Shown here piece by piece: positions 6,984-44,763 of a stretch of DNA of 56,189 bases; the first letter of the stretch is position 1; each line of letters opens with the position of its first letter. Made by a program: the position numbers and the translations under genes. The notes below the pieces were generated by a model. That model was not told the origin of the DNA. It saw nothing but the letters and a program-made list of their open reading frames with translations, and did no database searches. The DNA comes from Planctomycetota bacterium (lineage in GTDB: Bacteria > Planctomycetota > Planctomycetia > Pirellulales > Pirellulaceae): positions 1 to 56,189 of the forward strand of contig CAUJKL010000933.1 of assembly GCA_963204995.1 (NCBI GenBank), written 5' to 3'.

Positions 6984-7014
6984 TTCGGATGCTTGGTTTG
7001 AAATCGGCGTCGGC

Positions 7015-7052
7015 GTAGAGCGTTCGGGGAGTAACGGGCGCTCTACTTTTCT
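7015..7052 (+). terminator. rho-independent terminator between convergent genes
   Basis: GTAGAGCGTTCG / CGGGCGCTCTAC stem (8 perfect bp plus 4 extended pairs including G-U), followed by TTTTCT. Confidence 0.6.
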
Positions 7053-7069
7053 GGCAACAGTATCCGCCC

Positions 7070-8118: not shown

Positions 8119-10246
<2,128 letters not shown>

Positions 10247-10335
10247 CGATCCCGGCGATGTTCCCGTAATCAATACGTCCCGCCAACCACCTCGGTTGGT
10301 TTGCCCGGCGGCTTCTGGACCAACGCCCGGGCAGG

Positions 10336-27972: not shown

Positions 27973-28037
27973 GGGGGTATTGTAACAGCACGAAGGCAGC
28001 CCCACGATGTTAGTTGCATTTTGCGAGGAGATCCGGC

Positions 28038-30181: not shown

Positions 30182-33028
30182 TTACGCCCACAGCATTTCC
30201 AACTCGATCCATTCGCCCGCCGACAGCTCCAGTTGGACTCGGTCTTCGTTCAGCTGGCATTCGCCACGTGATTCACCTTTGAAATCCAACCTGCGTGCCG
30301 AACGCACGGGACGGAACGCACTCAATCTCGCGCGAGCTGCCCGACCGCTGGTCTCCAGCAAGCGAACACGCACTCCAACGATCGCGTCGCCCTCGGCGAC
30401 AGGTTCCCAATGCGTAGCGACGACGCTTCGTGCGTCGATGTGGAACAGCCAGCTCGAATCGCCGGACTTCGGTGCGGATGCGGTTTGATAGGTGACGGTC
30501 GCTGGGGCGAGTAGTCCGAGTGCTTCGTTGTGCGGCTGTGGCAAGTCGACACCGAGCCCCAAGTGAAACTTCTTCTGCCGTTCTCCGCGAACCGACAAGA
30601 TCGTATCGAGCATGCGATCGCCAATCCGTTTGTGATAGGGCAAGCCCCCGGTCAAGATTGTTGTTTGCATCTCGCCGGAGTCGATCGCGATGTAGAGCGG
30701 TGCTTCCAGCTTTTTCCGGTTGGCCTTCTGCCGCGTTTGATTCACGCCGCGAAACAACTCGGCCGTTTCGTCGGCCCAGGCGAAGCGGCACGCATAATAA
30801 GCGTTCCAAGGATCTGCCGCCGGAACGATGGTCGGGTCTAGTTCGATCTCTAGATGCAAGACGCGAGTTCCACGCCACAGTCGGAATGTTTGACGATACG
30901 TCGCTTGTAGTTTTCCTTCGCGGTCTAACAAGCGTCCAGAAACAATGATTTCTCCGTAGGCCGTCGTCGCGGCAGACACTTCGACGGAGTCAGCCGCCAT
31001 GACGGAATACGCCGCACTGTCGTCGGGATCCTGCCAGGCCTGGCCCACCTTGCCGCGAGAACTTCCCGCACGTAATGCTAATTGTTGAGAGAGGCGATTG
31101 CCGCGTTTGCCGTAGTCCTTTAACGATTGCATCGCGCCGGTGGTCGGGTTGATCGTGGCTTCGAGGAATTCGTTGCGAATGACGACCAGGTTCTCGCGAT
31201 CGCGGAGATCTTCAGCTAACAGAGGCGATGGGCGTTGCTTGGTCGGCGAACTTGCGGGAGTCACCCACACGAAACCCATCGGCGGCACGTCGACGACGAC
31301 GTGCTTCGTCGTTGCCGATTCTGCGGCTGCGTAGATCGGCTTCTCGACTTTTGGCAGAGCCGTCAGTTGAGGCATCTCAAGGCCGATGCGGCGTACGAAC
31401 GAAAATGGGTTCAGTACGAGGTAGCCCGACTCTTTCGCGCCTTCGCTGGGCGGGATGCAAGCGGCAAATGCTGCCGTCGCTGCGGCGATTCGCTCGGACA
31501 ATTGTTTGTCCACATCGGTTGCGTCCGGATCATCGGCAGTACAGTCGACCGCGAGCCTCGCATCATCAGCGGCCACGGGCGACGGAGTTCCTCGGACCAA
31601 CGTGGCCAGCGTGGAAAGCGAGTCTGCAACGCCCAACGCCGTATTCCGAACCCAGTAGCGTTGGATCGTGGAAAGCGGATCGGCTTCCGCGCGAATGATC
31701 GACTGCTTCAAATAGGGTGAGCGATATTGATCCGCCTCGAATCGATCGAGGTGACCGGGCATGTACGTGTCGCGAAAGTAGTCGGCGACCGTCACGAACT
31801 TGCCGAGCGCCGAACCATACTTGGCGCAGCGACGCAGGTCCTCGTACCACACACTCGCGTGCCCTGGCCAATGCGCGAAGATGAGTGTCGCGACGTGATC
31901 CGTGTCCATCGACTCGCCGAGCTTCGTAGCCAAATTGAGGAACGTCTCGGGCTTACTGGCGTCCAGCGGCGCGCGAGCGATCGCGTCGATGGCGGATCCG
32001 TCCGTTCCTTCCCAGCGAGTCTTGATCTGTGTGCCCAGCGGAAAGCGACCGTCATCCATCGTGGCGTGCAACGAACCCGTGAATCCAAGTTTCTCGATGA
32101 CTTGCGGCAGAAGTGGCGTCAATCCGAAACGCCGCCGACCATAGATGACTACAGATTGGCCGAGTGACGATTGCCAAGTGTTTAATCCCCGTCGCAGTTC
32201 GGCCAGCACCGTCTCACACGAAAGCAGCGGCAAGCGTCTTTCGACATGTTCGCCGCCGATCAGTCCGACCGTGCCATCCGCTACTGCCATCGCAAGTGTC
32301 GCATGCGTTTCGGGAGCCTCCTCGGCGAGATGACAACAGATTTCGCCAGTCGCTAACAGGTTGATGGGCACACCTTGCGCGAGTTCATTTCGCAGTGACT
32401 CCCCGAGCGTTTTCTCCGTGACCATCGTCAGATCAATCAGGAACGCATCGACCGAGTAGTAATGATCGCGTTCCGCGCCGAGCAGATTGAAGCAGGCGGT
32501 AAGTTTATCGTTGGCAAGTTGAGTGTCTCCGCTGGCTGCCGCCACTGCCCCGGTGACTAACTGGCTGTTGAAATGCACTTCGTCCAAGTTGCTGGAGTAA
32601 CGCATTTGGCGAGTGAGTAGCTGGGCTTGCAGGAAGCAATAGCCCAACGCCAGAAAATCGCTGACAAGGGATTCGTCGATATCTTTTGCAAGTTCGTCCG
32701 CGTGATCGAACGCTTGCCGAATGATCTCTTGGCGATCTTGCAAGCGGCGAACGAGGCACGCGCCAGACTCCTTCGCTCGATCGGCGAAGCCGGTTGGGAG
32801 CTGATCGCTGCTGACCGAAGGAACCAAAATCAAACGATTGCTTAATTCTTCCGGTGGGTCGTCAATCCGATACCACGAGGGAGCGGTCGCTGCGCTGGCG
32901 ATCAAAGCCGGGTGCCACAAGGCCGTCCAATTCGCGAGCAGCCCCTCGGCCTCCTCACCGTGATGGTGCTGAGGAAAGTCTTCGAGGCTGTGACAAGGCA
33001 GCAGAATTATCAGTTCCTGGAACTTCAT
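30182..33028 (-). CDS. 948-aa conserved protein, possibly a GH38 (alpha-mannosidase)-like fold
   Basis: No signal peptide. N-terminal LLPCHSLEDFP resembles the GH38 HxHxD strand in degenerate form. RRFGLTPLLPQVIEKLGFTGSL resembles the GH38 DxFG...P.il...G motif. Confidence 0.4.
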   Translation of the reverse strand: MKFQELIILLPCHSLEDFPQHHHGEEAEGLLANWTALWHPALIASAATAPSWYRIDDPPEELSNRLILVPSVSSDQLPTGFADRAKESGACLVRRLQDRQEIIRQAFDHADELAKDIDESLVSDFLALGYCFLQAQLLTRQMRYSSNLDEVHFNSQLVTGAVAAASGDTQLANDKLTACFNLLGAERDHYYSVDAFLIDLTMVTEKTLGESLRNELAQGVPINLLATGEICCHLAEEAPETHATLAMAVADGTVGLIGGEHVERRLPLLSCETVLAELRRGLNTWQSSLGQSVVIYGRRRFGLTPLLPQVIEKLGFTGSLHATMDDGRFPLGTQIKTRWEGTDGSAIDAIARAPLDASKPETFLNLATKLGESMDTDHVATLIFAHWPGHASVWYEDLRRCAKYGSALGKFVTVADYFRDTYMPGHLDRFEADQYRSPYLKQSIIRAEADPLSTIQRYWVRNTALGVADSLSTLATLVRGTPSPVAADDARLAVDCTADDPDATDVDKQLSERIAAATAAFAACIPPSEGAKESGYLVLNPFSFVRRIGLEMPQLTALPKVEKPIYAAAESATTKHVVVDVPPMGFVWVTPASSPTKQRPSPLLAEDLRDRENLVVIRNEFLEATINPTTGAMQSLKDYGKRGNRLSQQLALRAGSSRGKVGQAWQDPDDSAAYSVMAADSVEVSAATTAYGEIIVSGRLLDREGKLQATYRQTFRLWRGTRVLHLEIELDPTIVPAADPWNAYYACRFAWADETAELFRGVNQTRQKANRKKLEAPLYIAIDSGEMQTTILTGGLPYHKRIGDRMLDTILSVRGERQKKFHLGLGVDLPQPHNEALGLLAPATVTYQTASAPKSGDSSWLFHIDARSVVATHWEPVAEGDAIVGVRVRLLETSGRAARARLSAFRPVRSARRLDFKGESRGECQLNEDRVQLELSAGEWIELEMLWA

Positions 33029-33273: not shown

Positions 33274-33303
33274 TTGACAATTGCTACGCCGCGTCAGTAA
33301 AGT
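33274..33303 (+). promoter_or_regulatory. candidate promoter for the PilM-like operon
   Basis: TTGACA (33274-79), 18 nt, then TAAAGT (33298-303), in an AT-richer stretch of the 418-bp divergent intergenic region. Confidence 0.3.
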
Positions 33304-33446: not shown

Positions 33447-35927
33447 ATGGCGAAGCAAATCAAACGCTGCTGGGGAATCGACATTGGACAATGCGCCATT
33501 AAAGCGCTTCGCTGCACACTGGAAGGCGATCAGATTGTCGCCGACGCGTTCGACTATATCGAGTATCCGAAGATTCTGAGCCAGCCGGAAGCCGAACCGG
33601 AGCTACTCATCAAGGAAGCACTCGAAACATTCTTGTCACGCAACGAGATTTCGCGACTTAACGACAAAGTCGCGATTTCCGTTCCCGGTCAAAGCGGCCT
33701 CGCAAAGTTCTTCAAGCCGCCTCCGGTCGACGTGAAACGCTTGCCGGACATCTGCCGCTTTGAAGCCAAGCAACAGATTCCGTTCCCGCTCGAGGAAGTT
33801 ATCTGGGACTTCCAACAACTTGCGGGCGGGCAAGTGATCGATGGCTTTGCAATCGATACGGAAGTGGGCCTGTTCGCGATGAAACGCGAGCAAGTGCATC
33901 GCGCACTGCGGCCCTTCGAGACCGCTGACATTCAGTTAGACATGGTCCAGCTGGCTCCGATTGCCATCTATAACTTCGTCTCGCACGACATCCTGACTGA
34001 TGGTCCTGACGAGGATATGTTTGACCCCGACGACCCGCCGGAGTCGATCGTCGTGCTCGCCATGGGAACCGATGCCACCGACTTAGTGGTGACCAACGGT
34101 TTTCGTATGTGGCAGCGCAGTATTCCGCTAGGCGGCAACCACTTCACCAAGCAGTTGACTAAGGAATTGAAGCTGACTTTCGCGAAGGCAGAGCATCTAA
34201 AACGCAACGCGCGACAAGCCGAAGACCCAAAGACTGTCTTCCAGGCGATGCGACCGATCTTTAATGATCTCGTCACGGAAGTACAGCGATCGATTGGCTT
34301 CTTTCAGGGCATCGATCGCAAGGCGAAGATTCGGGGCGTTGTGCTGCTTGGCAATACCGTCAAACTGCCTGGTTTACAGCAGTACATCTCGAAGAATCTC
34401 GGCTACGACGTACTTGAATTTGATTCGTTTAAGGAGCTGTCTGGCGCGTCGGTGATCGGTTCACCTCAGTTCTCCGAGAACGTGCTGGCCTACGGCGTGA
34501 GCTACGGCCTCTGTCTGCAAGGGCTCGGTAAATCACGCCTTTCGACCAGCCTCTTGCCTCGCGAGATCCTGACCAAGCGTGCAATCAAGGCAAAAAAGCC
34601 GTGGGCGGTCGCTTCGGTCGGGGCGTTGCTGCTGGCTTGCTCCTTCAATTTCTTCTTCCATTACAACATCGTGTCGAAGGTCAAGGCCGATTATCAACAA
34701 GGTGGCGTGGCGTGGAGTCAGGGCGAGTCGAAGATCACTCAGGTCAAGCAAACGAGTGATGGCTATGTAAGTGAACATGCCGTTAAAGAAGCTCAGCAGG
34801 CGTTTGTCCGCGAAATCGGCGAAGAGGTCGTAGGCTCGGGTGACCGGCGTCTGTTGTGGTTAGAGCTGATGACGGCGCTGAACAAATCGCTGCCCTGGCC
34901 TAAGGGAGTGCAACCGGGAGAATACGTCGACTACAAGACCTTGCCGATGGATGAACGCCCCGTTCTCTACATCGATTATATCGAGTCGGAATACTTTGCC
35001 GATTTAACAACGTGGTACACGGCCCGTGTTGCGAATAGCTATTTCGAGTTGACGAGGCACTTGAAGGCGAATCGCGAAGGTCGACAGCTAGAAGAGACGG
35101 AAACCGTTGAGTCGACAGAGAATCTTGACCAACTAGTCGCTGGAGCCGAAGCACTTCCCGGTCCAACAGGAGCTGGCTGGGTGATCGAGCTCAGTGGCCA
35201 CCACTATTTCAATAAGTCTCGGCAGTTTGGCAGCTTGAACCATATTCGCAATACGATTTTGAGGTTCCTTGAGGAAGGCAGCCTTAACTTGCCCATCAAT
35301 ACCCAAGGTGATCTCAGAACCTTTACGATGAAGGAACTTGGCATCTCGCATCCGATTCTGGCAGCGAACGGAGGCGAGCCTAAACCGGTTCGCGTTCCGA
35401 ACCCGGACGTCCAAGGCGCGGCAGCGAGCGTGGTGGCAGGCTCAGAGATGTATGGTGCCGGAGGTGGCGAGGGATATGCTGCTCCGGGAGGTGGTTTTGG
35501 TGCCCCGATGGCAGCGGGAGCACCAGTTGGTGGCCCCGCCGGCGCACCCGCCAAAGACGACGCAGAGGTGGTCCCTGCTTTTTTCGATGTCAAGGAAACA
35601 ACATTTACGATCCAATTCTGCTGGACGCCGAAAACGCTGAGTGAACGTCTGGCAGCCCAAGAAGAAGCGGCTCGCCTGAAAGCAGCGGCGGATGCCGAGG
35701 CAGCTGCTAATGCACCTCCGGTCACGGCTAACGATGGCGCTACCGAAAACGCAGCGCCAGCAGGTGCCGCACCCGCAGTGGCACCGGAAGGCGCAGCACC
35801 GGCGGAGGCTGCGCCGGTAAATCAAGTGCCAGCAGGTGCAGCCGAACCACCGGCAGGGGCAGCAGGTGTAGCCGAACCACCGGCAGGGGCAGCCGAGCCA
35901 GTAGGGGCCGTTGAGGCTGGAACATAA
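33447..35927 (+). CDS. pilM: PilM-type actin-like ATPase fused via a TM helix to a large periplasmic region (PilM-PilN/GspL-like topology)
   Basis: CWGIDIGQCAIKAL, ISVPGQSGLAKFF and RFEAKQQIPFPLEEVIWDFQ match PilM. TM helix WAVASVGALLLACSFNFFFHY at nt ~34602-34670. Then ~420 aa ending in G/M/Y and Ala/Pro/Glu low complexity. GGAG 8 nt upstream of the ATG. Confidence 0.8.
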   Translation: MAKQIKRCWGIDIGQCAIKALRCTLEGDQIVADAFDYIEYPKILSQPEAEPELLIKEALETFLSRNEISRLNDKVAISVPGQSGLAKFFKPPPVDVKRLPDICRFEAKQQIPFPLEEVIWDFQQLAGGQVIDGFAIDTEVGLFAMKREQVHRALRPFETADIQLDMVQLAPIAIYNFVSHDILTDGPDEDMFDPDDPPESIVVLAMGTDATDLVVTNGFRMWQRSIPLGGNHFTKQLTKELKLTFAKAEHLKRNARQAEDPKTVFQAMRPIFNDLVTEVQRSIGFFQGIDRKAKIRGVVLLGNTVKLPGLQQYISKNLGYDVLEFDSFKELSGASVIGSPQFSENVLAYGVSYGLCLQGLGKSRLSTSLLPREILTKRAIKAKKPWAVASVGALLLACSFNFFFHYNIVSKVKADYQQGGVAWSQGESKITQVKQTSDGYVSEHAVKEAQQAFVREIGEEVVGSGDRRLLWLELMTALNKSLPWPKGVQPGEYVDYKTLPMDERPVLYIDYIESEYFADLTTWYTARVANSYFELTRHLKANREGRQLEETETVESTENLDQLVAGAEALPGPTGAGWVIELSGHHYFNKSRQFGSLNHIRNTILRFLEEGSLNLPINTQGDLRTFTMKELGISHPILAANGGEPKPVRVPNPDVQGAAASVVAGSEMYGAGGGEGYAAPGGGFGAPMAAGAPVGGPAGAPAKDDAEVVPAFFDVKETTFTIQFCWTPKTLSERLAAQEEAARLKAAADAEAAANAPPVTANDGATENAAPAGAAPAVAPEGAAPAEAAPVNQVPAGAAEPPAGAAGVAEPPAGAAEPVGAVEAGT

Positions 35928-35938
35928 GGAACAGAATC

Positions 35939-37597
35939 GTGGATCAAGTAAAACAAGTACTCGCAGTCTTGAATACGCAGAAATTCTGGGTCACCTGCGG
36001 ATTTTTGACCCTGCTGCCGGTCGGCATTTGGTTTGTCGCCAAGTCTGCGCTCGACAAAGAATTCGAAGCGCGCAAGACCGCGATTACTACGGCCTATACG
36101 ACGGCAAAAAACATTGAGGGCATTCCTGATCACCCCAATCCGATTTCAGCGAAAGGGATGGACGAGAATCTCGGCAAGCTAAAAAAGAGCGTTTTTGATG
36201 CGTGGCAGGCACAGTACGAAGAGCAAAAACAGATTCTCGTCTGGCCCAAGGAGTTGCGACGCGATTTTATAGCCATGGTCGATCCGCTACGACCAATCGA
36301 GGAGAAAGTGACGTTTCCCACGCCTGCCGTTTATGAACTCCGACCTGAAATGCGCGAAGAATATCGCGACTACATTAAGGCCGAATTGCCTAAACTCGCG
36401 CAGATCATAGGCGCGCAATGGGGCAGCACTGCTCAGGTTGCTCAAGGTGACATGGCGGGAAGCGGAACTGGTGGATACGGTTCAGGCGGCGCGTCTCGTT
36501 CGGCCGCTGCGGAGAATGTCATTGTGCAATGGGACGCCAGCGACCAGTCGCGGTTGGTTTCACGCTTTGATTGGTCTCATACCTCCGACAAATTACCTCA
36601 AACCTTGGATATTCTTTATGCCCAAGAGGATCTCTGGATCCTGAATGCGGTCATGAACATCATCAAGCGGACGAATCGAGATGCTACAGCGAGCTATGAT
36701 GCGACAATCAAGGAGCTGAAATACGTACAGTTGGGGCAAGCGGTACGTGGAGCGGTTGGCAAGGTAACACGTTTGACTGGGGCGGCTGCGAGTGGCGGCG
36801 ACATGGGAGAAGGAGCGATGTACGGCAGCATGATGGACGGCAGCATGATGGACGCTGGCGCGATGGGTGGCGCAGGTGCAGATATGGGAAGTGGTGGCGC
36901 TATGGGCATGCCTGGCAGCGAGGGAATGGGTGCAACTGCCAGCAGAGACCCTGCCGATTTACGATACGTGGACAATAACTACGTTCCGCTCCCTGCAACT
37001 CGTGTTCGCACCGCGCTCAGCCCTGACGGCAAGAGCCCTGACGACGCCTTTTTGGTGGTGGCGAAGCGAGTGCCGATACGAATCGGCTTAACGATGGATC
37101 AACGGCGTATTCATCGCCTAGTGACTGAATGCGGCAACTCGACACTGATGGTGGAAGTTCGCCAAGTTCGTGTCAATCGCCAGTCGCCACCTACAGGCGG
37201 GGCTGGAGGTATCGGCTATGGTGGTGAGTCCGGTGGTGGATTTGGCGGTGGGTTCGGAGGTGGCGGCGGATTCGGCGGCGGATTTGGTGGCGGTGGATTT
37301 GGGAGTGGCGCTTCGGGTCCGGGAGGCGAAATGGGAGGAATGGGAATGGAAATGGAAATGGGGATGGGAAGCGGGTACGGAGGCGGAGCAGGTGCTACCG
37401 CATCGCTGAAGTCGAGCTATGACCTTCCCGTTGAACTCTATGGGATCATCTACATCTACAATCCTGTCGCCGAAAAGAAACTCGGTATCGAACTTAAAGA
37501 AGCGGATCCGGATGCCGCTCCGGCGGAGCCAGCGGCCCCCGAACCGGTTGCCGTTGAAAAGGCCGCCCCACAGGATATGGCCATGGCTGTTAATTAG
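35939..37597 (+). CDS. bitopic membrane protein with Gly/Met/Phe low-complexity tracts, unknown function (pilus/secretin cluster)
   Basis: GTG start 11 nt after the PilM stop (AAGGAA upstream). N-terminal TM FWVTCGFLTLLPVGIWFVA. LCRs at nt 36781-36935 and 37186-37400. Confidence 0.75.
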   Translation: MDQVKQVLAVLNTQKFWVTCGFLTLLPVGIWFVAKSALDKEFEARKTAITTAYTTAKNIEGIPDHPNPISAKGMDENLGKLKKSVFDAWQAQYEEQKQILVWPKELRRDFIAMVDPLRPIEEKVTFPTPAVYELRPEMREEYRDYIKAELPKLAQIIGAQWGSTAQVAQGDMAGSGTGGYGSGGASRSAAAENVIVQWDASDQSRLVSRFDWSHTSDKLPQTLDILYAQEDLWILNAVMNIIKRTNRDATASYDATIKELKYVQLGQAVRGAVGKVTRLTGAAASGGDMGEGAMYGSMMDGSMMDAGAMGGAGADMGSGGAMGMPGSEGMGATASRDPADLRYVDNNYVPLPATRVRTALSPDGKSPDDAFLVVAKRVPIRIGLTMDQRRIHRLVTECGNSTLMVEVRQVRVNRQSPPTGGAGGIGYGGESGGGFGGGFGGGGGFGGGFGGGGFGSGASGPGGEMGGMGMEMEMGMGSGYGGGAGATASLKSSYDLPVELYGIIYIYNPVAEKKLGIELKEADPDAAPAEPAAPEPVAVEKAAPQDMAMAVN

Positions 37598-37696
37598 TGC
37601 CGAAACGGATTTTACATATCCTGCCTGCTGGCGGAGATGTTATGCTGATGCAAGACGAGATCGACAGGGGATGGATCAAGTTTAGGAGCCAATGTA

Positions 37697-39922
37697 ATGG
37701 CAAAATTGAAACTCGATAAAGAATCACTGCAACGCTTTTTTTTCAATCACACCGAAAAAATCGTGCTCGCGGTCGTTATTCTGTTGCTCGGATTGTTTAT
37801 CTGGAGCGGTTCAAGTCTCGAAGGAATCGGTGCCCAAAATCCGGCGGAACTTGCCAGCAAAGTCGAGGCAGTTGCCAAGAAGATCGAGGCACCAACTTGG
37901 GACAATGTCAAAGAGAAATACGTCCCCGTGTTGGACCATGTTGGGCGTAAGCAAATTGGCGATGCCGCAACGTCGGAAAGCTACTATCGACTGGACACAC
38001 CCTTGATCGGCAGCCCGCCGAACTCCGCAACTCCTCGACAAGATCCAGAAATCTTTGCCGTCACCGACGTCGAGGCGACCGTTGTCACCGCGGCGATCGC
38101 GTTCAAAGCCCGACCGGGCTTGATCGACCCCTTTATGGATCTCGCGAATTTCGAACAGGAAAAGATTGAGGCTCCCAAGAAGAAGCCAAAGAAGAGTAAG
38201 AAGAACACAGCGGGTGGGAGTTATGGCGAAGAGATGGCGATGATGATGGAAGACGAGGCCATGGCGGGTGCCTCGGGTAGCATGATGAGCGAAGGTATGG
38301 GAGCGTACGGCTCAGGAGCGTACGGCGCAGGAGCGATGGGAGGTGTCCCAGCTGGCCCAACCGTCCGGGCAGACGCGAATAAATTCCACGGCTATCAACC
38401 CACGGCAACTTCAACCGCCACCGGTTCGTCCGTAATCGGCTATACCAAACACCTCGTTTCGGTGAGAGGGCTCGTGCCCTACCAACAACAATGGGACGAA
38501 TTCGAACGCGTGTTTGCCGACGCTGCCGGCTATATGCCATCGCGAGACATCCCCAAATACCTCTCGTTTCGGGCCCAGCGTGCGGAAGTCCCAAGCGATC
38601 CGAACGAACCCTTGAAATGGGGTTGGATCTCCTGGACAGCCGGGGTTCTTACCGATCTCCCGAAGAAGGGTTGGGCAGGTTTTCCTGGCGAAATCGCCGA
38701 TTCGAAGTATCTACTCCACGGCGTTTTGACGATGCCCGTGCCGCCGGTAATGATGCGTGACCTCCGACCGTTAGCCCTGCATTCGAAAGTGCCCATGCAA
38801 CTAGAGGAAAAGGTACAGGCGGTGGCACGAACGGGCCCTGAATTAGTCAACGTCGACGAGGTTGGCGGCGTGGCCGATATCGACGACTTGCCGCCCGTAC
38901 CGGGAGCCCGCCCAGGAGTTGGAGCGGGCGGTGCAGGTATGTACGGAAGTGACGGCGGCATGTATGGAAGTGGTGGCGGCATGTACGGAAGTGGCGGCGG
39001 CATGATGGGGATGACCGGAGAGGGCTACGGGGCAGGAATGGGGGGAATGGGGTACGACATGGGAATGGGTGGCACGGGTTTGCAACAAGTTCGCGGCCCG
39101 CAAGCCGAGTTCCTGATGGTCCGTTTCTTTGACGAGATCGCACCCGGCAAGAAGTACGTGTACCGAATTCAAGTTGTGTTAGAGGATCCCAATCATCCTC
39201 AATTCCCGCAGCAGGAGCCGCAGAGCCGCATTTTGGCCGACACCGTCCGCACACGGCTCGCCAACGTCGCGGCCGAAGAAGTCAAGCAAACGGCTGCTAA
39301 AAAGACGCCCATTCGGCTCTTCTCGTTGACCACGGAGTGGAGTGAACCTACCGCTCCGGTCTTCGTCAAGCCACAGTCGGAAATCTATGCGGGCGGTGTT
39401 ACGCTGCCGCTCATGCGTGATATTCTGCGTAGCACAGAACCCAATCAACTACAAAAAACTGGGTACACGCTTCCTGCGGACGGCGAGCCGACCGCCCAGG
39501 TCATGAACCTATCGTGGAGCTCGAAGTATGCAGTCGACATGCCTGGCATTTTGAAAGCGTCGAGAGGCTCCTTTCTCAACCAATCGATCGAAGCGGATGT
39601 TATTGATCCAGTCACGATGGTCTACAAGGTGGTTCCCGATTATAAGCTCTCATCGAACGAGCTCGTTATCGATCTCCGCGGCGGCGAGATCCTTCAACCG
39701 GCAGCGGGAGAGGTAAAAGCACTTTTGACGCCCGGTGAAGTCGCCGTCATCGACGCGCGTGGGAATTTCGTCGTTCGCAATGAATTGGACGACTGGCAGG
39801 CCTTTGATAAATACGCTCCTCCAGCCCCCCTTGTGGTCGAAGCAGCTCCGACCGCGAGCGACGGATACGGTGGCGAGACCATGGACTACGGGGCCTACGG
39901 TGCCGGTCCTAGCGGACCGTAG
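37697..39922 (+). CDS. bitopic membrane protein with Gly/Met/Tyr low-complexity tracts, unknown function (pilus/secretin cluster)
   Basis: AGGAG upstream of the ATG. N-terminal TM IVLAVVILLLGLFIWSG. KKKPKKSKKN patch, then LCRs at nt 38210-38344 and 38897-39078. Confidence 0.75.
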   Translation: MAKLKLDKESLQRFFFNHTEKIVLAVVILLLGLFIWSGSSLEGIGAQNPAELASKVEAVAKKIEAPTWDNVKEKYVPVLDHVGRKQIGDAATSESYYRLDTPLIGSPPNSATPRQDPEIFAVTDVEATVVTAAIAFKARPGLIDPFMDLANFEQEKIEAPKKKPKKSKKNTAGGSYGEEMAMMMEDEAMAGASGSMMSEGMGAYGSGAYGAGAMGGVPAGPTVRADANKFHGYQPTATSTATGSSVIGYTKHLVSVRGLVPYQQQWDEFERVFADAAGYMPSRDIPKYLSFRAQRAEVPSDPNEPLKWGWISWTAGVLTDLPKKGWAGFPGEIADSKYLLHGVLTMPVPPVMMRDLRPLALHSKVPMQLEEKVQAVARTGPELVNVDEVGGVADIDDLPPVPGARPGVGAGGAGMYGSDGGMYGSGGGMYGSGGGMMGMTGEGYGAGMGGMGYDMGMGGTGLQQVRGPQAEFLMVRFFDEIAPGKKYVYRIQVVLEDPNHPQFPQQEPQSRILADTVRTRLANVAAEEVKQTAAKKTPIRLFSLTTEWSEPTAPVFVKPQSEIYAGGVTLPLMRDILRSTEPNQLQKTGYTLPADGEPTAQVMNLSWSSKYAVDMPGILKASRGSFLNQSIEADVIDPVTMVYKVVPDYKLSSNELVIDLRGGEILQPAAGEVKALLTPGEVAVIDARGNFVVRNELDDWQAFDKYAPPAPLVVEAAPTASDGYGGETMDYGAYGAGPSGP

Positions 39923-39985
39923 AGTTGCTAGCCCGCCACGAGAGCCCGCTCGGCGCGCGATCACGAACTTGACCAGCACGCACAG

Positions 39986-40016
39986 CTCCATTCGTTCATC
40001 GAATGGAGTTTTTTTT
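39986..40016 (+). terminator. rho-independent terminator
   Basis: CTCCATTCG-ttcat-CGAATGGAG followed by TTTTTTTT. Confidence 0.9.
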
Positions 40017-40038
40017 ATTGCACGTCTCAGAAGTGATC

Positions 40039-40067
40039 TTGACCGTGTTTGCACGGGCGAGTATTTA
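40039..40067 (+). promoter_or_regulatory. candidate promoter of the secretin gene
   Basis: TTGACC (40039-44), 17 nt, then TATTTA (40062-67), directly after the terminator. This implies a ~230-nt leader. Confidence 0.35.
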
Positions 40068-40305
40068 TCCCGCTCTCGTCTACCAAAAAGATACTCCGGT
40101 CAGCGGTTGTACACACTCGTGAAATTGTCTCTTCGAGTGGGCGTGACCACTGGTTTCTCGTCACCTACTAAGCAAAGTGCGAATTCTCGCAAGGTCATGG
40201 AAAACTGGTCGGACACCTCGCTGATTCACCGTCTAACCCGGACGATGGCAAGACCGGGCGACGGAGACACTAGGATCACAAGCTTCTCGAAGAAGGAGAA
40301 TCGCG

Positions 40306-43300
40306 TTGAAAGCGATCTGTAAGGTTTCGTTCGGATGCATCGCCTTGGCGATCACACTGCCACCAGCCGCATTCGCAGAAAGCCATTCCGTGATCACAGC
40401 GATCGCCAACGCGAATGCCGCGTTCGGCCAAACCGCTTCCGCCGATGAAGCCGCTCGCCGCCGCGAGGCGGACCAGTGGTTACGGCAAGCACGCCAGGCG
40501 CTGGAGGACGGCAAGCCGGATGTCGCCGAGTACTGCGTCGACCGCGCCGAAAAGTTCAACGCCAGTTTTGACTCGGTACTGTCACGATTCGCCGACACAC
40601 CAGCCAAAGTGCGACGCGACATCGACGCCGCACGCGGTTCTGGTCCCACTCGGCCGCAAGTGCCAAGCCAACAGTTTGCTCCAGGGTCGCCACCCGCCAA
40701 CGGTTTGTCGACAACTGCAACGGGCAACGCGGCACCCGGAAAGGACCAGGTGCTGAATCAAATGACAAACACTGGCAAGGCACAAGCCAGCGATTACCTT
40801 CAACGAGGCCGTCAAGCTCTGCAGCAAGGTGACAAGACGGCAGCCCTGTCGTGGTATCAACGCGCGGTTGCGACAGGTGCTTCGTTCGCGCCAGGCGAGT
40901 TCTCTCCCGTCCATTTTGCATCGGAGCTGCAACGGGCCGGAGTTGATATCAGCCGCATCGCGCAGCTCCAACCTGCCCCCGCGTTCGCCACCAATCCAGC
41001 GGACTTTGCTCCGCGCGAGCTGGATCGTCTGCCGGCAATTAAGCCAATGCCCTCGAACGCCGATAGCGCTTTCGAAGGAGGCCTTGTCACCAACCCGACA
41101 CAACTTGCCGGCGGTTCGCAATTCGGCAATGCCGCGCCAGCGAGTCCTCAAAAGTTGGCAGCGATGCGATTACTTGCCCAAGCTCAAGCCGCTTTGGGAC
41201 GTGGCGATTTGCGTGCGGCCAACGAATTCGCCGAACAAGCCCAAGCGATTCGAGTTCCAGAGCAGGAGTTCTCACAGGGAGAAACGCGACCTTGGGAGTT
41301 GCTGCTCCAGATTCGCAGTCAGTTGAATCGTCAGGGAGGTTCCGGTGTCATCCCCGCCGGGAATTTCGAAACGGTTCCTGAGATGGCCAATGGCGGTGCT
41401 CAGCCAAATCGTTCGCCGATTAGCCAAGGAATCTACACACCAGAATCAGACTCGACTCGCAATCGTTACGCGCAAGCCGAGATCCCCACGCCTGCTCTTC
41501 GTCCTGCCGATAGTTCGGCTGGATTGCAGATCTATCGTGAGGGGTTGCGAGCGTTGGAAGCTCAAGATCGTGATGAAGCCCTACGGTTATTTCGCAATGC
41601 GTGGCAGTATCAACAAGAATTCGATCCGCTCACACGACAAGACTTGAAGGACAAGCTCAGCCTGTTGAGCGCGGCTGGAAATCGTCCGCTTCGTGAACCG
41701 TCGCCCTTAGAAGAAGTCAACGCACAGCAAGAGTTACTCCGCCAACAACTGTTCCGCGAGATCTCCAACGAAACCAAAGAAGCCGAACAAATGGTGCAAT
41801 CGGACCCTCGGGGAGCGTTGCAGCGCGTCACGAAACTTCGCGAACGTGTGTCGCAAGCCGAAGTTGATCCAGGTGCGAGACGCCAGCTCCTGACCATCGT
41901 CGATCAAGAAGTTGCAAGCATCGAAGCATACATCCGACAGAACGAGGGTGACATCGTTTTGAAGGAGCGAAATCGCCAAGTCGTCGACTCGATCGATCGC
42001 GATCGTGCCGCAAAAATCGACGTGCAACAGAAAGTTGCTCAGTTGGTCGAGGAGTTCAATGACTTGCTCGACCAAGAACGACATGCGGAGGCAGAAGTCC
42101 GCGCTCGCCAAATCCGCGAACTCGATCCCGAGTCGCCTGTCACACGCTTGGTGACGATGAAGAGCAAGTTCGCCAGTCGTATGCAACGGAACCAATGGAT
42201 CGCCGACCAGAAGGAAGACGGGTTTGTCAAGAATATGCAAGACACGGACGCGGCTTCGATTGCGACGGTCGGCGACGACCATCCGATCGACTTCGGCGAC
42301 AAAACTCGTTGGGATCAGCTGTCGCGAACCCGTCTCGAACAACTCGAAATGCAGCAACGACGTCTTTCGCCGGTTGAGATGGAAATTCAAAACACGCTGA
42401 AGAAACCTGTTGACGTTAATTTCAACAATCGGCCTTTGAAAGAAGTGCTCGATACCCTCGCCAGCATTTCCGGAGTCAATATCTACGCCGATCCACAAGG
42501 GCTCGCGGCAGAGGGAGTTACGAGCGATACGCCCGTAAACATCACGTTGACTCAGGCCATCTCGTTACAAAGTGCCCTGAATCTGATTCTCGAACCGCTG
42601 CGTCTGAGCTACGTCATCCAAAACGAAGTGCTTCGGATCACGAGCGAACAACTACGCGACTCGAATGTCAAACCGCAGGTCTACAACGTGGCAGACCTGG
42701 TCATTCCGATCCCGAACTTCATTCCCGGCTACAACGTTGGGCTCCCGTCTGCGATCCGAGAAGCTCACACTGCTCTCGGATATGGCGGTGTTGCACCGTC
42801 GGTATCAATGGCTCCATTGACGGTGGCGTCCAACGACATGCAAGGCGGTGGTCCAGCGAGCGCTTCGGCACTCGCGCAAATGAGTACCTATGGCGGCCTT
42901 CCACAGGGGAGCAGGTCACGCCCTTCGCAACCGTTGGGTTATGGTGCCGGCAGCATGGGCGGAGCCGCATTGGCTGACTTTGATACGCTCATTCAATTGA
43001 TTACATCAACGATCAAGCCGGACACCTGGGACGAAGTGGGTGGCCCCGGTGCGATCGAGCCGTTTCCCACGAACTTGAGCTTGGTCATTAGTCAGACACA
43101 GGATGTTCACGAGCAGATCGCGGACCTCCTCGAACAGCTCCGGCGCTTGCAGGACTTGCAAGTGACGATCGAAGTCCGCTTCATCACTCTGCGTGACGAC
43201 TTCTTCGAGCGAATTGGCGTCGACTTCGACTTCGATGTCGACGACAACGTCACCACCTTGCCTCCAGACGATTCGGGACCGAGTGTTGCTATCGGCTTGA

Positions 43301-44112
43301 CGCCAACGGGAGTCCCGACGGCCGACTTCGACTATTCGTTCACCCAAGATAGCTTCAGCCTTACCACTCCGGCATTCGGAGGATTTGGAACCGGTGCAGG
43401 AGCCGCGAACTTTGGTTTTGCGATCCTGAGCGACATCGAAGCATTTTTCCTCGTCCAAGCGGCCACCGGAAGTAATCGCAGCAATGTGTTGGCTGCCCCG
43501 AAGGTCACGCTGTTCAACGGTCAGCAGGCGTCTGTCAGTGACGTTTCGCAACGCCCGTTCGTGACCAGCTTGATCCCGGTCGTCGGCGACTTTGCCGCCG
43601 CCCAACAGCCGGTGATCGTAGTCCTCAGCGAAGGGACTTCCCTCGGCGTCCAAGCCGTCGTCTCTTCCGATCGCCGATTTGTCAGACTGACGCTGGTTCC
43701 ATTCTTCAGCCAGATCGGTGAAGTCGAGGAGTTTACTTTCGACGGAACTACGACGACAAACACGGGCTCGAACGTCGTCGATGCAACCGGCAAACCGACC
43801 GGCGACAAAGACAATACGATAACTACGACGCAAGGCACGACAGTTCAGCTGCCCACCTTCTCCTTCACGACCGTATCGACGACCGTGAGTGTACCGGATG
43901 GCGGAACGGTTTTGCTGGGCGGCATCAAACGCCTGTCCGAAGAACGCAAGGAACAAGGCGTGCCGATGCTGAACAAGATTCCGTACGTCAACCGGCTGTT
44001 CAAGAACGTAGGTATCGGTCGAGCGACAACCAGCCTGATGCTGATGGTGACGCCTCGAATCATCATTCAGGAGGAAGAGGAAGAGAAAATGGGCATCGAG
44101 ATCATTCCATAA
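40306..44112 (+). CDS. secretin (PilQ/GspD family) with ~700-aa N-terminal helical-repeat and coiled-coil extension
   Basis: TTG start 8 nt after AAGGAG. Signal peptide ...LPPAAFAESH. STN/N0-like KKPVDVNFNNRPLKEVLDTLASISGVNIYADP. C-terminal secretin core SVPDGGTVLLGGIKRLSEERKEQGVPMLNKIPYVNRLFKN...MLMVTPRII. Confidence 0.9.
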   Translation: MKAICKVSFGCIALAITLPPAAFAESHSVITAIANANAAFGQTASADEAARRREADQWLRQARQALEDGKPDVAEYCVDRAEKFNASFDSVLSRFADTPAKVRRDIDAARGSGPTRPQVPSQQFAPGSPPANGLSTTATGNAAPGKDQVLNQMTNTGKAQASDYLQRGRQALQQGDKTAALSWYQRAVATGASFAPGEFSPVHFASELQRAGVDISRIAQLQPAPAFATNPADFAPRELDRLPAIKPMPSNADSAFEGGLVTNPTQLAGGSQFGNAAPASPQKLAAMRLLAQAQAALGRGDLRAANEFAEQAQAIRVPEQEFSQGETRPWELLLQIRSQLNRQGGSGVIPAGNFETVPEMANGGAQPNRSPISQGIYTPESDSTRNRYAQAEIPTPALRPADSSAGLQIYREGLRALEAQDRDEALRLFRNAWQYQQEFDPLTRQDLKDKLSLLSAAGNRPLREPSPLEEVNAQQELLRQQLFREISNETKEAEQMVQSDPRGALQRVTKLRERVSQAEVDPGARRQLLTIVDQEVASIEAYIRQNEGDIVLKERNRQVVDSIDRDRAAKIDVQQKVAQLVEEFNDLLDQERHAEAEVRARQIRELDPESPVTRLVTMKSKFASRMQRNQWIADQKEDGFVKNMQDTDAASIATVGDDHPIDFGDKTRWDQLSRTRLEQLEMQQRRLSPVEMEIQNTLKKPVDVNFNNRPLKEVLDTLASISGVNIYADPQGLAAEGVTSDTPVNITLTQAISLQSALNLILEPLRLSYVIQNEVLRITSEQLRDSNVKPQVYNVADLVIPIPNFIPGYNVGLPSAIREAHTALGYGGVAPSVSMAPLTVASNDMQGGGPASASALAQMSTYGGLPQGSRSRPSQPLGYGAGSMGGAALADFDTLIQLITSTIKPDTWDEVGGPGAIEPFPTNLSLVISQTQDVHEQIADLLEQLRRLQDLQVTIEVRFITLRDDFFERIGVDFDFDVDDNVTTLPPDDSGPSVAIGLTPTGVPTADFDYSFTQDSFSLTTPAFGGFGTGAGAANFGFAILSDIEAFFLVQAATGSNRSNVLAAPKVTLFNGQQASVSDVSQRPFVTSLIPVVGDFAAAQQPVIVVLSEGTSLGVQAVVSSDRRFVRLTLVPFFSQIGEVEEFTFDGTTTTNTGSNVVDATGKPTGDKDNTITTTQGTTVQLPTFSFTTVSTTVSVPDGGTVLLGGIKRLSEERKEQGVPMLNKIPYVNRLFKNVGIGRATTSLMLMVTPRIIIQEEEEEKMGIEIIP

Positions 44113-44140: not shown

Positions 44141-44170
44141 AGCCCGTTGCTCACGCGACGGGCTTTTTTT
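44141..44170 (+). terminator. rho-independent terminator
   Basis: AGCCCGT-(10 nt)-ACGGGCT followed by TTTTTTT. Confidence 0.8.
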
Positions 44171-44210
44171 ATGGTGAAGCCTTTATCGCCAAGCTTTTTC
44201 CGGGTGACTT

Positions 44211-44624
44211 GTGAAAGATCGACATATCCTGTTTGTTGGAGGTGTTCTCGGTGGACTCGGCGTTGCACTAGGCGCGTTCGGAGCACACTGGCTTGAAGGA
44301 GCCATTAAGCAGTGGGGACTTGAACCGGTCGAAGAGCTCAAACGCCTCAACACATGGGAAGTCGCAGTGCGTTATCAGATGTATCACGCCCTGGCGTTAC
44401 TGGCACTCGGGTCGCTTGCGACGCGACTTCCTGAACGGAGTAAGGTTTGGTCCGCACGCCTATTCATCGTTGGCACCTGCGTTTTTAGCGGCTGCTTATA
44501 TGTACTGGTCCTTTCGGGCGTCAAAGTCCTTGGTGCCGTCGTCCCACTTGGTGGAAGCTGTCTCATCGGTGGGTGGCTAGTGCTGGCAATCGCGGCGCTT
44601 CGGTGCTCCGACTCGCACTGCTGA
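44211..44624 (+). CDS. DUF423 (YgdD/TMEM256-like) membrane protein
   Basis: 137 aa with four hydrophobic helices. GGVLGGLGVALGAFGAHWL and YQMYHALALL are the family hallmarks. GTG start. Confidence 0.8.
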   Translation: MKDRHILFVGGVLGGLGVALGAFGAHWLEGAIKQWGLEPVEELKRLNTWEVAVRYQMYHALALLALGSLATRLPERSKVWSARLFIVGTCVFSGCLYVLVLSGVKVLGAVVPLGGSCLIGGWLVLAIAALRCSDSHC

Positions 44625-44719: not shown

Positions 44720-44763
44720 AAAGTCCATCTTATTTGTTGATTCTTACTAGTAGAGGACTGAAC

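Follow-up and report, generated by a model that had tools for sequence, protein, structure and literature searches.

A PilM-to-secretin gene set in a planctomycete resembles the pilus-associated cluster of Akkermansia muciniphila

Results

Organization of the locus

The window, i.e., the whole stretch of 56,189 nt analysed here, contains four plus-strand ORFs, designated genes 1–4 (ORF list; Table 1), at the coordinates reported in an earlier note on this DNA, with 11 nt between gene 1 and gene 2. The starts of genes 2 and 3 were backed by the N-terminal consensus sequences of their orthologs, MDQVK and MAKLKLDKE, respectively, and the TTG codon of gene 4 has an AAGGAG ribosome-binding site 7 nt upstream. 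A hydropathy scan detected a single transmembrane (TM) segment each in genes 1, 2, and 3, and a signal-like N-terminal segment in gene 4. The two terminators described in the earlier note were located and took ranks 1 and 2 of a hairpin scan. The sigma-70-like element upstream of gene 1 was the sole promoter-like match in an intergenic position; it is a consensus match only, and such matches were no more numerous in the region than expected from shuffling. Gene 4 had been credited with its own promoter-like element, but the promoter scan found none upstream of it. Gene 3 ends 383 nt before gene 4, with a strong terminator in this spacer, and the secretin gene, gene 4, is a transcription unit apart from the gene 1–3 operon.

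Table 1. Positions of the genes and other features of the locus
Feature	Positions (nt)	Strand	Description
GH38-like neighbour	30182–33028	−	948 aa; Pfam Glyco_hydro_38N, E 5.8e-5, below cut-off
Sigma-70-like promoter match	33274–33303	+	TTGACA-18-TAAAGT; in the 418-nt divergent intergenic region 5′ of gene 1
Gene 1	33447–35927	+	826 aa; ATG start
Gene 1 TM helix	34602–34661	+	aa 386–405
Gene 2	35939–37597	+	552 aa; GTG start
Gene 2 Gly/Met-rich loop	36788–36943	+	aa 284–335; disordered
Gene 2 Gly/Met-rich loop	37187–37405	+	aa 417–489; disordered
Gene 3	37697–39922	+	741 aa; ATG start
Gene 3 Gly/Met/Tyr-rich loop	38282–38344	+	aa 196–216
Gene 3 Gly/Met/Tyr-rich loop	38903–39100	+	aa 403–468
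Terminator-like hairpin	39984–40017	+	11-bp stem and T8 run; closes the gene 1–3 operon
Gene 4	40306–44112	+	1268 aa; TTG start
Gene 4 secretin domain	43471–44064	+	aa 1056–1253
Terminator-like hairpin	44141–44171	+	10-bp stem (7 GC pairs) and T7 run; 3′ of the secretin gene
Prepilin-type gene	44734–45732		N_methyl and DUF1559/H-X9-DG; 620 nt downstream of the secretin gene

Genes 1 and 4 encode the PilM-type and secretin ends

Gene 1 was predicted to encode a cytoplasmic PilM actin-like domain (aa 10–358), a TM helix at the site given in the earlier note with 421 residues C-terminal to it, and a periplasmic region (aa ~406–740) followed by an Ala/Pro/Glu-rich tail. The protein matched Pfam PilM_2 (E 2.7e-30) and attained the cut-off of the PilM model TIGR01175 (133.8 bits; cut-off, 133). 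Its PDB matches, including M. xanthus PilM (E 2e-21), were PilM proteins and not GspL, and its public annotation is "type IV pilus assembly protein PilM". NF045709 Amuc_1101_fam matched aa 55–482 (E 2.2e-49), reaching beyond the TM helix, and hhalign (99.7%) aligned aa 46–444 with residues 43–427 of Amuc_1101, likewise spanning the helix. The pairwise identity to this Akkermansia counterpart was 25% in the PilM domain. The profile scan returned no PilN or GspL match for the periplasmic part. Judged from these matches, gene 1 combines its PilM domain, TM helix, and periplasmic part in a single polypeptide, with a predicted GspL- or Amuc_1101-like topology, as had been proposed.

Gene 4 carries a predicted signal peptide (aa 1–24; signal-like segment at aa 3–22 in the hydropathy scan), a helical N-terminal extension of ~700 aa with weak TPR matches, weak STN/N0-like (aa 746–778) and Secretin_N (aa ~913–946) matches, and a secretin domain (Pfam Secretin, E 5.9e-23). 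The PilM-to-secretin trans-envelope set of the earlier note was borne out. The GspD and PilQ models gave E-values of 2.4e-26 and 6.8e-26, respectively, both far under their cut-offs (GspD, 92 bits; cut-off, 351), and the IMG label is "general secretion pathway protein D". PDB secretins matched aa 1169–1257 only, and hhalign with Amuc_1098 (96.6%) paired aa 920–1254 with residues 488–875. The Pfam scans did not return an AMIN domain. Gene 4 is a secretin with a long TPR-like, helical N-terminus.

Genes 2 and 3 encode bitopic proteins with inserted loops

The description of genes 2 and 3 as bitopic and oversized was confirmed, with TM helices at aa 16–38 and aa 14–45, respectively, in the hydropathy scan. 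When the four proteins were searched with profiles, these two gave no PilN, PilO, PilP, GspL, GspM, or GspC match, and no Pfam/NCBIfam match of any kind, even at E≤1 or with the low-complexity loops taken out.

In the AF2 model of gene 2 (pLDDT 69; ordered core >90), long helices and a PilO/Amuc_1100-like alpha/beta core were split by disordered Gly/Met-rich loops. All 16 Foldseek matches in the PDB were Amuc_1100, PilO, EpsL, or PulM, with probabilities of 0.98 for Amuc_1100 (TM 0.63) and 0.77–0.84 for PilO; the E-values, none below 0.098 and about 0.1–0.5 overall, are individually weak. NF038287 Amuc_1100_fam was matched weakly, in two collinear regions, by 9 of 35 gene 2 relatives (best E 5.9e-4; 14–19 bits against a cut-off of 180), and the relative P0139 bears PF28028 (= Amuc_1100). 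A beta-alpha-beta / loop / beta motif runs collinearly through the gene 2 and Amuc_1100 families, and both have a low-complexity loop at the corresponding position. Hhalign aligned only the TM/coil part of gene 2 with Amuc_1100, and BLAST similarity to the Akkermansia counterpart was undetectable. The homologs form at least 289 clusters, every one labelled "hypothetical". The fold of gene 2, as modelled, is PilO/Amuc_1100-like with inserted disordered loops, each single link being weak, and the earlier view of gene 2 as non-canonical did not hold.

Gene 3 has a conserved cytoplasmic N-terminus and a periplasmic part consisting of an alpha/beta domain (aa ~110–370) and a beta-rich C-terminal region (aa 473–715) in the AF2 model (pLDDT 68; ordered domains ~90). 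Foldseek of the model against the PDB and BFVD and a profile search against the PDB matched nothing, and 18 gene 3 relatives likewise had no Pfam/NCBIfam matches. No similarity was detected to PilP or GspC, or to Amuc_1099 by hhalign or BLAST.

The Gly/Met-rich periplasmic loops are unusual, and their positions are conserved among relatives; much of the extra protein size consists of these loops.

Conservation and neighbouring genes

The gene set was strongly conserved beyond the source strain: the order gene 1-2-3 was kept, with conserved sizes, in all 26 genome loci (e.g., Blastopirellula marina, Anammoximicrobium, and Thermoguttaceae), and the gene 3 family comprised 1282 representatives at E≤1e-30. 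The secretin gene adjoined gene 3 in the same order in ~10 of ~25 informative loci, with secretin identities of 47–86%; in ~15 of 25 it was missing within ~5–10 kb downstream of gene 3, and it was unlinked in the majority of the remoter relatives. Genes 1–3 are a conserved operon, and of the four-gene set proposed earlier this part stood, whereas the set as a whole is not fixed.

The GH38-like gene, whose product lacks a signal peptide, is transcribed divergently from gene 1. An ortholog lay directly upstream of and divergent from gene 1 in 19 of 20 loci with an upstream flank (30–83% identity); the gene was absent from locus L113. By position, it is almost always a neighbour of the gene 1–3 operon.

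The earlier note had seen no motor, platform, or pilin gene in the cluster. The scan of the window's larger ORFs found no PilB/T/C-type and no linked gspE–K genes, and two further annotated loci had no ATPase, platform, or peptidase genes within 10 kb. As to the pilin, the claim needs amending: prepilin-type genes are present in the window, and one lies close to the secretin gene (Table 1). Its DUF1559 protein matches the GspG model (E 1.1e-9), and its position varies among related loci.

Discussion

We consider it probable that the products of the four genes make up the scaffold across the envelope and the outer-membrane pore of a type-IV-filament machine (T4P/T2SS superfamily), in the form usual for the Planctomycetes–Verrucomicrobia lineage. 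The earlier note had suggested an undescribed machine, but the gene arrangement and all of the proteins except that of gene 3 match the Amuc_1101/1100/(1099)/1098 cluster of Akkermansia, which has already been described. Since the gene order is that of Akkermansia MUL2 plus the secretin gene, the set is best taken as a PVC-type type-IV-filament scaffold in an enlarged planctomycete version, not as a new machine class. Counting against this reading are the missing Amuc_1102-like gene, the separate transcription unit of the secretin gene and its mostly unlinked state in more distant relatives, the lack of a detectable relative of gene 3 outside its own family, the periplasmic part of gene 1 with no PilN or GspL match, and the weakness of the gene 2 links.

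Because its cytoplasmic PilM-type actin-like domain is joined covalently to a periplasmic domain by a single TM helix, gene 1 would be a one-chain equivalent that alone does the job of PilM and PilN, or of GspL. Gene 2 would be an inner-membrane partner of the PilO/GspM/Amuc_1100 type. Gene 3, anchored in the inner membrane with large periplasmic beta-rich domains, holds the place in the cluster of PilP, GspC, or Amuc_1099; its position and topology suggest that it may connect to the secretin's N-domains in the periplasm. Gene 4 would form the outer-membrane channel, with its N-terminus extending into the periplasm. Helping the complex to bridge the wide, variable periplasm of planctomycetes is the most likely function of the Gly/Met-rich loops, Pro/Ala-rich tails, and long secretin N-terminus. 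The complex would have no motor of its own. The ATPase (PilB/GspE type), platform (PilC/GspF), prepilin peptidase, and prepilin-type subunits that it recruits would be products of genes at other sites, and the DUF1559/H-X9-DG proteins, which are abundant, are candidate fibre subunits; with these partners it would build a fibre or pseudopilus that passes through the secretin. Given that genes for an ATPase, platform, or peptidase were found neither in the window nor within 10 kb at the two other annotated loci, dependence on a T4P-type motor is an assumption. By analogy with Akkermansia MUL2 and the dextran-binding planctomycete fibres, the most likely role would be fibre assembly for polymer attachment and capture or uptake. 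Mucin accumulation requires MUL genes for pili and periplasmic complexes (PMC12418764, bioRxiv 10.1101/2024.03.27.586211, PMC13174399), and dextran is bound by planctomycete pili-like fibres on crateriform structures (PMC5394234). Our literature search found no experiments on planctomycete orthologs of these genes.

We regard as unlikely a T2SS-like exporter, in which genes 1–3 would be GspL/GspM/GspC analogues and, with the secretin, would drive a short pseudopilus of GspG-like DUF1559 proteins that expels folded periplasmic hydrolases with no external fibre. The GspL-like order of domains in gene 1, the bitopic nature of gene 3 (as in GspC, not a lipoprotein like PilP), EpsL and PulM in the gene 2 Foldseek list, the GspG match, and a secretin that fits GspD as well as PilQ and bears a secretion-pathway label all agree with it. 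However, the Gsp profiles were silent for the scaffold proteins, the GspD score fell far under its cut-off, the PilM model and the PDB pointed to PilM and not GspL, gspE–K genes were not linked, and the nearest match, the cluster of Akkermansia, is treated in the literature as pilus-related (PMC5332112, PMC13174399).

It is improbable that a distinct apparatus borrowed only the PilM and secretin ends and works without a type IV pilin or PilB-type motor, for example as a crateriform-pore core for macromolecule import. Such an apparatus would suit the large unannotated gene 3 family with no fold match, the conserved positions of the unusual loops, the conserved GH38-like neighbour, and the crateriform structures, whose underlying genes are not established (PMC5394234, PMC11958385). 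Three of the four proteins nevertheless map to T4P-type parts and to the Akkermansia pilus-associated cluster, and prepilin-type genes occur in the window. Motor, platform, and peptidase genes were unlinked at every locus examined, but this is not evidence of independence, because pilMNOPQ and pilBTCD loci are normally unlinked in well-studied T4P systems. It is very improbable that gene 4 adjoins genes 1–3 without being related to them in function, with its secretin serving another system and genes 1–3 using another secretin or none. The terminator and spacer before gene 4, the frequent absence of a secretin gene downstream of gene 3, and the three pilQ-like genes of P. limnophila (PMC11958385) would fit this, whereas the same adjacency recurs in ~10 planctomycete loci and in Akkermansia, a member of another phylum.

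Comparison with known systems

The T2SS GspC-GspL-GspM and GspD resemble the present set in the topology of gene 1, the GspM/PilO-like gene 2, and a bitopic gene 3 adjoining the secretin gene; the gene order differs, the GspC, GspL, and GspM profiles gave no matches, and the gspE–K operon is absent. The T4aP PilM-PilN-PilO-PilP and PilQ of Pseudomonas, Myxococcus, and Thermus likewise run from a cytoplasmic PilM to an outer-membrane secretin, with a recognisable PilM domain, a PilO-like fold, and unlinked motor genes. In contrast to T4aP, the scaffold genes number three, not four, PilN, PilO, and PilP profiles found no matches, PilM is fused to a membrane anchor and does not bind a separate PilN peptide, the 741-aa bitopic gene 3 protein takes the place of the small lipoprotein PilP, and the secretin, with its TPR-like helical N-terminus, gave no AMIN match in the Pfam scans.

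The closest counterpart is Akkermansia muciniphila Amuc_1098–Amuc_1102 (MUL2 and secretin; locus L027), known since 2016–17, named MUL2 after genetics in 2023, and treated as pilus-related in the literature (PMC5332112, PMC13174399); its proteins are abundant envelope proteins (PMC5332112). Both clusters run, in the identical order Amuc_1101-1100-1099-1098, from a PilM-like protein that carries a TM helix and a periplasmic extension through an Amuc_1100-type and an unannotated bitopic protein to a TPR-extended secretin, such an N-terminus having been reported for Amuc_1098 (PMC4960237), and both lack a motor gene. Genes 1 and 4 align with their counterparts by hhalign, and the gene 2 model is nearest the Amuc_1100 crystal structures; gene 3 shows no such similarity. 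Pairwise identities are very low, and scores against the NCBIfam Amuc_* models are far under the equivalog cut-offs. Akkermansia has the pilin-like Amuc_1102, which is not found here, and Pro/Ala-rich instead of Gly/Met-rich loops, whereas the planctomycete secretin gene is transcribed separately and frequently unlinked. The planctomycete proteins comprise 826, 552, 741, and 1268 aa, compared with 612, 317, 337, and 906 aa in Akkermansia, respectively.

Organization of the locus

The four ORFs, their strand, and the 11-nt gap between genes 1 and 2 were as described in the earlier note, with identical ORF coordinates. The starts of genes 2 and 3 matched the conserved N-termini of their families, and the start codon of gene 4, the secretin gene, was preceded by AAGGAG. 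Because the top two terminator-like hairpins in a scan of the region directly follow genes 3 and 4, genes 1–3 look like a single operon and the secretin gene like a separate unit. Both terminators had been noticed before, but the promoter-like element earlier ascribed to gene 4 was not recovered; the promoter scan of the region returned none 5′ of this gene. Hydropathy analysis gave a single transmembrane segment for each of the products of genes 1–3 and a signal-like N-terminus for that of gene 4.

Features of the locus and its surroundings (nucleotide positions in the window)
Feature	Coordinates	Strand	Size	Remarks
DUF1559/H-X9-DG prepilin-type gene	5555-6583	+		N-terminal prepilin methylation motif; GspG-like N-terminus
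Giant ORF	10336-17292	-	2318 aa	overlaps next ORF
Giant ORF	17289-20729	-	1146 aa	
PD-(D/E)XK transposase-family gene	28014-29000	+		
NTP_transf_5 nucleotidyltransferase gene	29526-30167	-		truncated-looking
GH38-like gene	30182-33028	-	948 aa	divergent from gene 1
Promoter-like match	33274-33303	+		5′ of gene 1
Gene 1	33447-35927	+	826 aa	transmembrane segment aa 386-405
Gene 2	35939-37597	+	552 aa	GTG start; 11-nt gap after gene 1; transmembrane segment aa 16-38
Gene 2, cytoplasmic N-terminus	35939-35983	+		short
Gene 2, periplasmic loops	36788-36943, 37187-37405	+		Gly/Met(/Tyr/Phe)-rich
Gene 3	37697-39922	+	741 aa	transmembrane segment aa 14-45
Gene 3, N-terminus	37697-37760	+		
Gene 3, periplasmic loops	38282-38344, 38903-39100	+		Gly/Met(/Tyr/Phe)-rich
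Terminator-like hairpin	39984-40017	+		directly 3′ of gene 3
Gene 4 (secretin)	40306-44112	+	1268 aa	TTG start
Terminator-like hairpin	44141-44171	+		directly 3′ of gene 4
DUF423 small membrane protein gene	44211-44624	+		directly 3′ of secretin terminator
DUF1559/H-X9-DG prepilin-type gene	44734-45732	+		620 nt 3′ of secretin; N-terminal prepilin methylation motif; GspG-like N-terminus

The neighboring families in the window (PSCyt/PSD1, DUF1501, and DUF1559) are typical of planctomycetes. As the earlier note had stated for the cluster, no PilB/PilT ATPases, PilC platform, or PilD peptidase were found, here among the larger ORFs scanned in the 56-kb window; prepilin-type genes do occur in it, and the two DUF1559/H-X9-DG proteins are candidate (pseudo)pilin subunits. 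Neither gene is conserved in position, and for this reason the one 3′ of the secretin gene was rejected as the pilin of the cluster.

The DUF423 gene is also found 3′ of the secretin gene in five related loci (L001, L002, L003, L005, and L006). The giant overlapping ORFs gave no Pfam or NCBIfam match. The transposase-family and nucleotidyltransferase genes are placed between a PSCyt/PSD1 gene and the GH38-like gene, possibly as a small insertion or mobile segment; the nucleotidyltransferase gene adjoins the GH38-like gene in L001 too.

Gene 1 is predicted to encode a membrane-anchored PilM

Residues 10–358 of the gene 1 product matched the PilM domain (PF11104, E = 2.7e-30), the protein scored 133.8 bits against the PilM model TIGR01175 (cut-off 133), and a search of the PDB retrieved Myxococcus xanthus PilM with an E-value of 2e-21. 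The best NCBIfam match was the family of Amuc_1101 (NF045709, E = 2.2e-49), the PilM-like protein of an Akkermansia muciniphila cluster; it covered residues 55–482, past the transmembrane helix, and scored 168.8 bits, where the equivalog cut-off is 650. Profile alignment by hhalign with four Akkermansia orthologs of Amuc_1101 gave 99.7% probability over residues 46–444, including the helix. Gene 1 thus appears to be a clear homologue of Amuc_1101, not an equivalog. Its product is therefore predicted to be a PilM with a covalent membrane anchor and some 420 more residues outside, which agrees with the "PilM+PilN or GspL-like" topology read previously.

No PilN or GspL signature was detected in the periplasmic part by Pfam or NCBIfam, including domain-only constructs. 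For the C-terminal part of gene 1, gene 2, and gene 3, Pfam gave no PilN match even at E ≤ 10, and no match to PilN/O/P or GspC/L/M was obtained with the full proteins or with loop-removed domain constructs. PilN/PilO-type paralogy among these three regions was not detected by hhalign, which returned low-complexity matches only.

Gene 2 is taken to encode a remote PilO/Amuc_1100-type protein

Gene 2 had no match in Pfam or NCBIfam, PilO included, even after excision of the disordered loops, and its family profile retrieved nothing from the PDB sequences. An AlphaFold model derived from 35 relatives had a core with pLDDT above 90, broken by four disordered stretches, and a Foldseek search of the PDB with this model returned 16 matches, all of which were Amuc_1100, PilO, EpsL, or PulM. 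The top matches were crystal structures of Amuc_1100, with a best probability of 0.98 and a TM-score of 0.63. PilO of Pseudomonas aeruginosa and M. xanthus (2rjz, 5uvr, and 3jc8_O) gave probabilities of 0.77–0.84 and E-values of 0.3–0.5, and the matches to EpsL and PulM were marginal (E = 8.5–9).

Because the E-values for Amuc_1100 and PilO are weak (0.1–0.5), the assignment rests on the agreement of independent lines. The NCBIfam model of Amuc_1100 (NF038287) matched 9 of the 35 relatives weakly, in two collinear regions, with 14–19 bits against a cut-off of 180, and the Amuc_1100 family PF28028 was present on one relative in precomputed Pfam annotation. Both families have the arrangement beta-alpha-beta, long low-complexity loop, and beta, with similar residues. 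Direct alignment of the gene 2 family with Amuc_1100 by hhalign, using single-sequence, 11-sequence, and 4-sequence profiles, aligned the transmembrane/coil region alone (E about 0.01) and was not significant. From sequence and model, we take gene 2 to encode a remote protein of the PilO/Amuc_1100 type that loops have made larger. The earlier note recognized no motif in genes 2 and 3, and neither gave a PilN/O/P-type match in Pfam or NCBIfam. The N-terminus of gene 2 is among the best-conserved parts of the family, with M1, D2, and K5 nearly invariant.

Gene 3 belongs to a large family without profile or fold matches

Gene 3 and 18 of its relatives gave no match in Pfam or NCBIfam, and its family profile found nothing among the PDB sequences. 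Foldseek searches of the PDB and BFVD with its model also found nothing, though the ordered domains had pLDDT values around 90. Neither a profile nor a fold match to PilP was obtained. Nothing was found against Amuc_1099 by BLAST or by hhalign of the gene 3 profile with four Akkermansia orthologs; what gene 3 shares with it is position only, after the Amuc_1100-like gene and before that of the secretin. Exhaustive profile search gave 1282 family representatives at E ≤ 1e-30 and 2496 at E ≤ 1e-10. The best 150 relatives were nearly all alike in size (mostly about 650–870 aa), most being full-length matches, and public records name gene 3 "hypothetical protein".

The product starts with a short conserved cytoplasmic segment, followed by a transmembrane helix and a helical stretch; after these come an alpha/beta domain and a beta-rich C-terminal half. 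Because this layout, together with the place just before the secretin, is what PilP or GspC would offer, we infer that gene 3 may encode a connector to the secretin like these proteins. A PilN-PilP fusion was also considered. The N-terminus is among the best-conserved parts, with M1, K3, F14, E20, and K21 invariant in the 13 closer alignment sequences.

A large share of the extra length in genes 2 and 3 comes from Gly/Met(/Tyr/Phe)-rich low-complexity loops (such as GGFGGGFGGGGGFGGGFGGGGFG and GGMYGSGGGMYGSGGGMMGM), whose insertion points are conserved among orthologs and whose sequences are variable. At the site that corresponds to residues 417–489 of gene 2, Amuc_1100 carries a loop rich in Pro and Ala.

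Gene 4 encodes a secretin with a long N-terminal extension

The secretin recognized previously in gene 4 was confirmed, with the domain at residues 1056–1253 (PF00263, E = 5.9e-23). Weak STN and Secretin_N matches precede this domain, and about 700 N-terminal residues are helical and TPR-like, with TPR-like hits in Pfam; no AMIN domain was returned by the Pfam scans. Against Amuc_1098, the secretin of the Akkermansia cluster, hhalign gave 96.6% probability across the C-terminal 330 residues.

Conservation of the locus

In a genome-collection scan comprising 26 loci, the order of genes 1–3 was kept in every locus covering them, including those of Blastopirellula marina DSM 3645, Candidatus Anammoximicrobium, and Thermoguttaceae; the closest genomic relatives were uncultured "Planctomycetaceae/Pirellulaceae" MAGs. 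The large protein sizes were also conserved (gene 1, 754–876 aa; gene 2, 505–691 aa; gene 3, 671–860 aa; secretin, 1081–1358 aa). The four-gene order noted before was less general: about 10 loci, for the most part of closer relatives, had the secretin gene after gene 3, and about 15 others lacked it within 5–10 kb 3′ of gene 3. Two more annotated loci had genes 1–3 alone, without a PilB/T/C-type gene within 10 kb. In the related MAG locus L022, two overlapping ORFs take the place of each of the orthologs of genes 1 and 3 (4894-7507 and 9179-11598), probably because of frameshift errors of long-read assembly; real pseudogenes are the less likely cause.

The GH38-like protein has no signal peptide and matched the GH38 N-domain weakly (E = 5.8e-5, below the cut-off). 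Unexpectedly, of the 20 loci with an upstream flank, 19 had an ortholog at this place, with 30–83% identity; it was absent in the related locus L113. A link of this neighbor to glycan handling is possible.

Proposed role of the gene set

Most likely, the four proteins provide a type-IV-filament machine, in its Planctomycetes-Verrucomicrobia form, with scaffold and pore. Gene 1 would connect an ATPase docking site in the cytoplasm with the periplasm, gene 2 would be its PilO-type partner, and gene 3 would bridge to the secretin, whose long N-terminus, with the disordered loops, would fit the complex to a wide periplasm. The ATPase, platform, peptidase, and subunits would be encoded elsewhere in the genome, and the machine may, by analogy, assemble fibers for polymer attachment or uptake.

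The main rival is a T2SS-like export role. The GspD and PilQ models scored gene 4 equally and both far under their cut-offs (TIGR02517, 92.3 bits against 351; TIGR02515, 91 bits against 284), and the family signatures of the T2SS platform proteins GspL, GspM, and GspC were found on none of the four proteins in Pfam and NCBIfam. Less likely are an apparatus that works without pilins and PilB-type motors, and chance adjacency of the secretin gene.

A further reading, which we consider improbable, concerns cell structures of planctomycetes. In these bacteria, large crateriform structures carry 12-nm pili-like fibers that bind dextran (PMC5394234), and no genes have been assigned either to these pits and fibers or to the polymer route into the very large periplasm (PMC5394234, PMC11958385). 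Genes 1–3, with or without the secretin, would form the structural core of a crateriform/fiber apparatus that captures polysaccharides and imports them into the enlarged periplasm, and gene 3 would represent a new class of secretin connector. Rings of the disordered Gly/Met/Tyr/Phe-rich loops of genes 2 and 3 would act in the periplasm as a gate of gel-like nature or as an elastic tether, somewhat like nuclear-pore FG-repeat proteins, and the GH38-like neighbor would provide a tie to glycan processing.

The value of the locus lies in candidate genes for an open question of planctomycete cell biology: it is a concrete candidate set for surface structures or polymer uptake, with conservation throughout at least the order that was sampled. 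Three of its features are worth separate study, namely the gene 3 family, with more than 1000 representatives and no Pfam/NCBIfam model or fold match, the conserved, disordered Gly/Met-rich loops of the periplasmic parts, which form an unusual class, and the almost invariant GH38-like neighbor.

Comparison with known systems

The observation in the earlier note was confirmed, and its interpretation was supported in part. The set does not represent a novel type of machine, and its order matches Amuc_1101–1098 of Akkermansia; what is new is an enlarged version of a known system type, with one orphan component (gene 3) and several unexplained features. For two of the four proteins, the names in public records are already correct. 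The literature search returned no paper on a planctomycete version of the cluster. In Planctopirus limnophila, three pilQ-like genes can be deleted (PMC11958385).

Compared with the PilMNOP proteins and PilQ of T4aP, the cytoplasmic actin-like ATP-binding PilM has a counterpart in gene 1, whereas the separate bitopic PilN is replaced by a membrane anchor fused to PilM. The N-terminus of PilN is a docking peptide for PilM, and by analogy the cytoplasmic N-termini of genes 2 and 3 could be putative docking peptides for the PilM domain. PilO is bitopic and combines a coiled coil with a ferredoxin-like core; gene 2 has no Pfam PilO match, and its model matches PilO structures with weak E-values. 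PilP is a small inner-membrane lipoprotein with a secretin-binding beta-sandwich, whereas gene 3 is larger, is anchored by a transmembrane helix, and has no lipobox cysteine.

The Akkermansia products Amuc_1098–1102 are described as abundant in the envelope and as likely constituents of pili-like structures (PMC5332112), and Amuc_1099–1102, now named MUL2, are conserved across Verrucomicrobiales (PMC13174399). The locus was fetched with the Amuc_1100 sequence, whose residues 31–317 are identical to PDB entries 6LAD and 6KNY; a metagenome scan seeded with an Amuc_1100 alignment returned near-identical A. muciniphila contigs only. It encodes Amuc_1102 (238 aa, pilin-like), Amuc_1101 (612 aa, PilM), Amuc_1100 (317 aa), Amuc_1099 (337 aa, no Pfam match), and Amuc_1098 (906 aa), which, like gene 4, is a TPR-plus-secretin protein in the locus annotation and in the literature (PMC4960237). 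With Amuc_1102 left aside, the order of PilM-like, Amuc_1100-like, unknown, and TPR-extended secretin genes is the same in the window and in four Akkermansia loci (L027, L109, L110, and L111). In Akkermansia, the pilin-like Amuc_1102 (MUL2A) gene lies 5′ of the PilM gene, whereas the window has the divergent GH38-like gene there; the best tblastn match of Amuc_1102 in the window had an E-value of 0.41. Synteny and fold thus tie the planctomycete gene set to an Akkermansia locus that has reportedly been linked by genetics to mucin uptake, which implies a shared, ancient Planctomycetes-Verrucomicrobia pilus-like apparatus for polymer handling.
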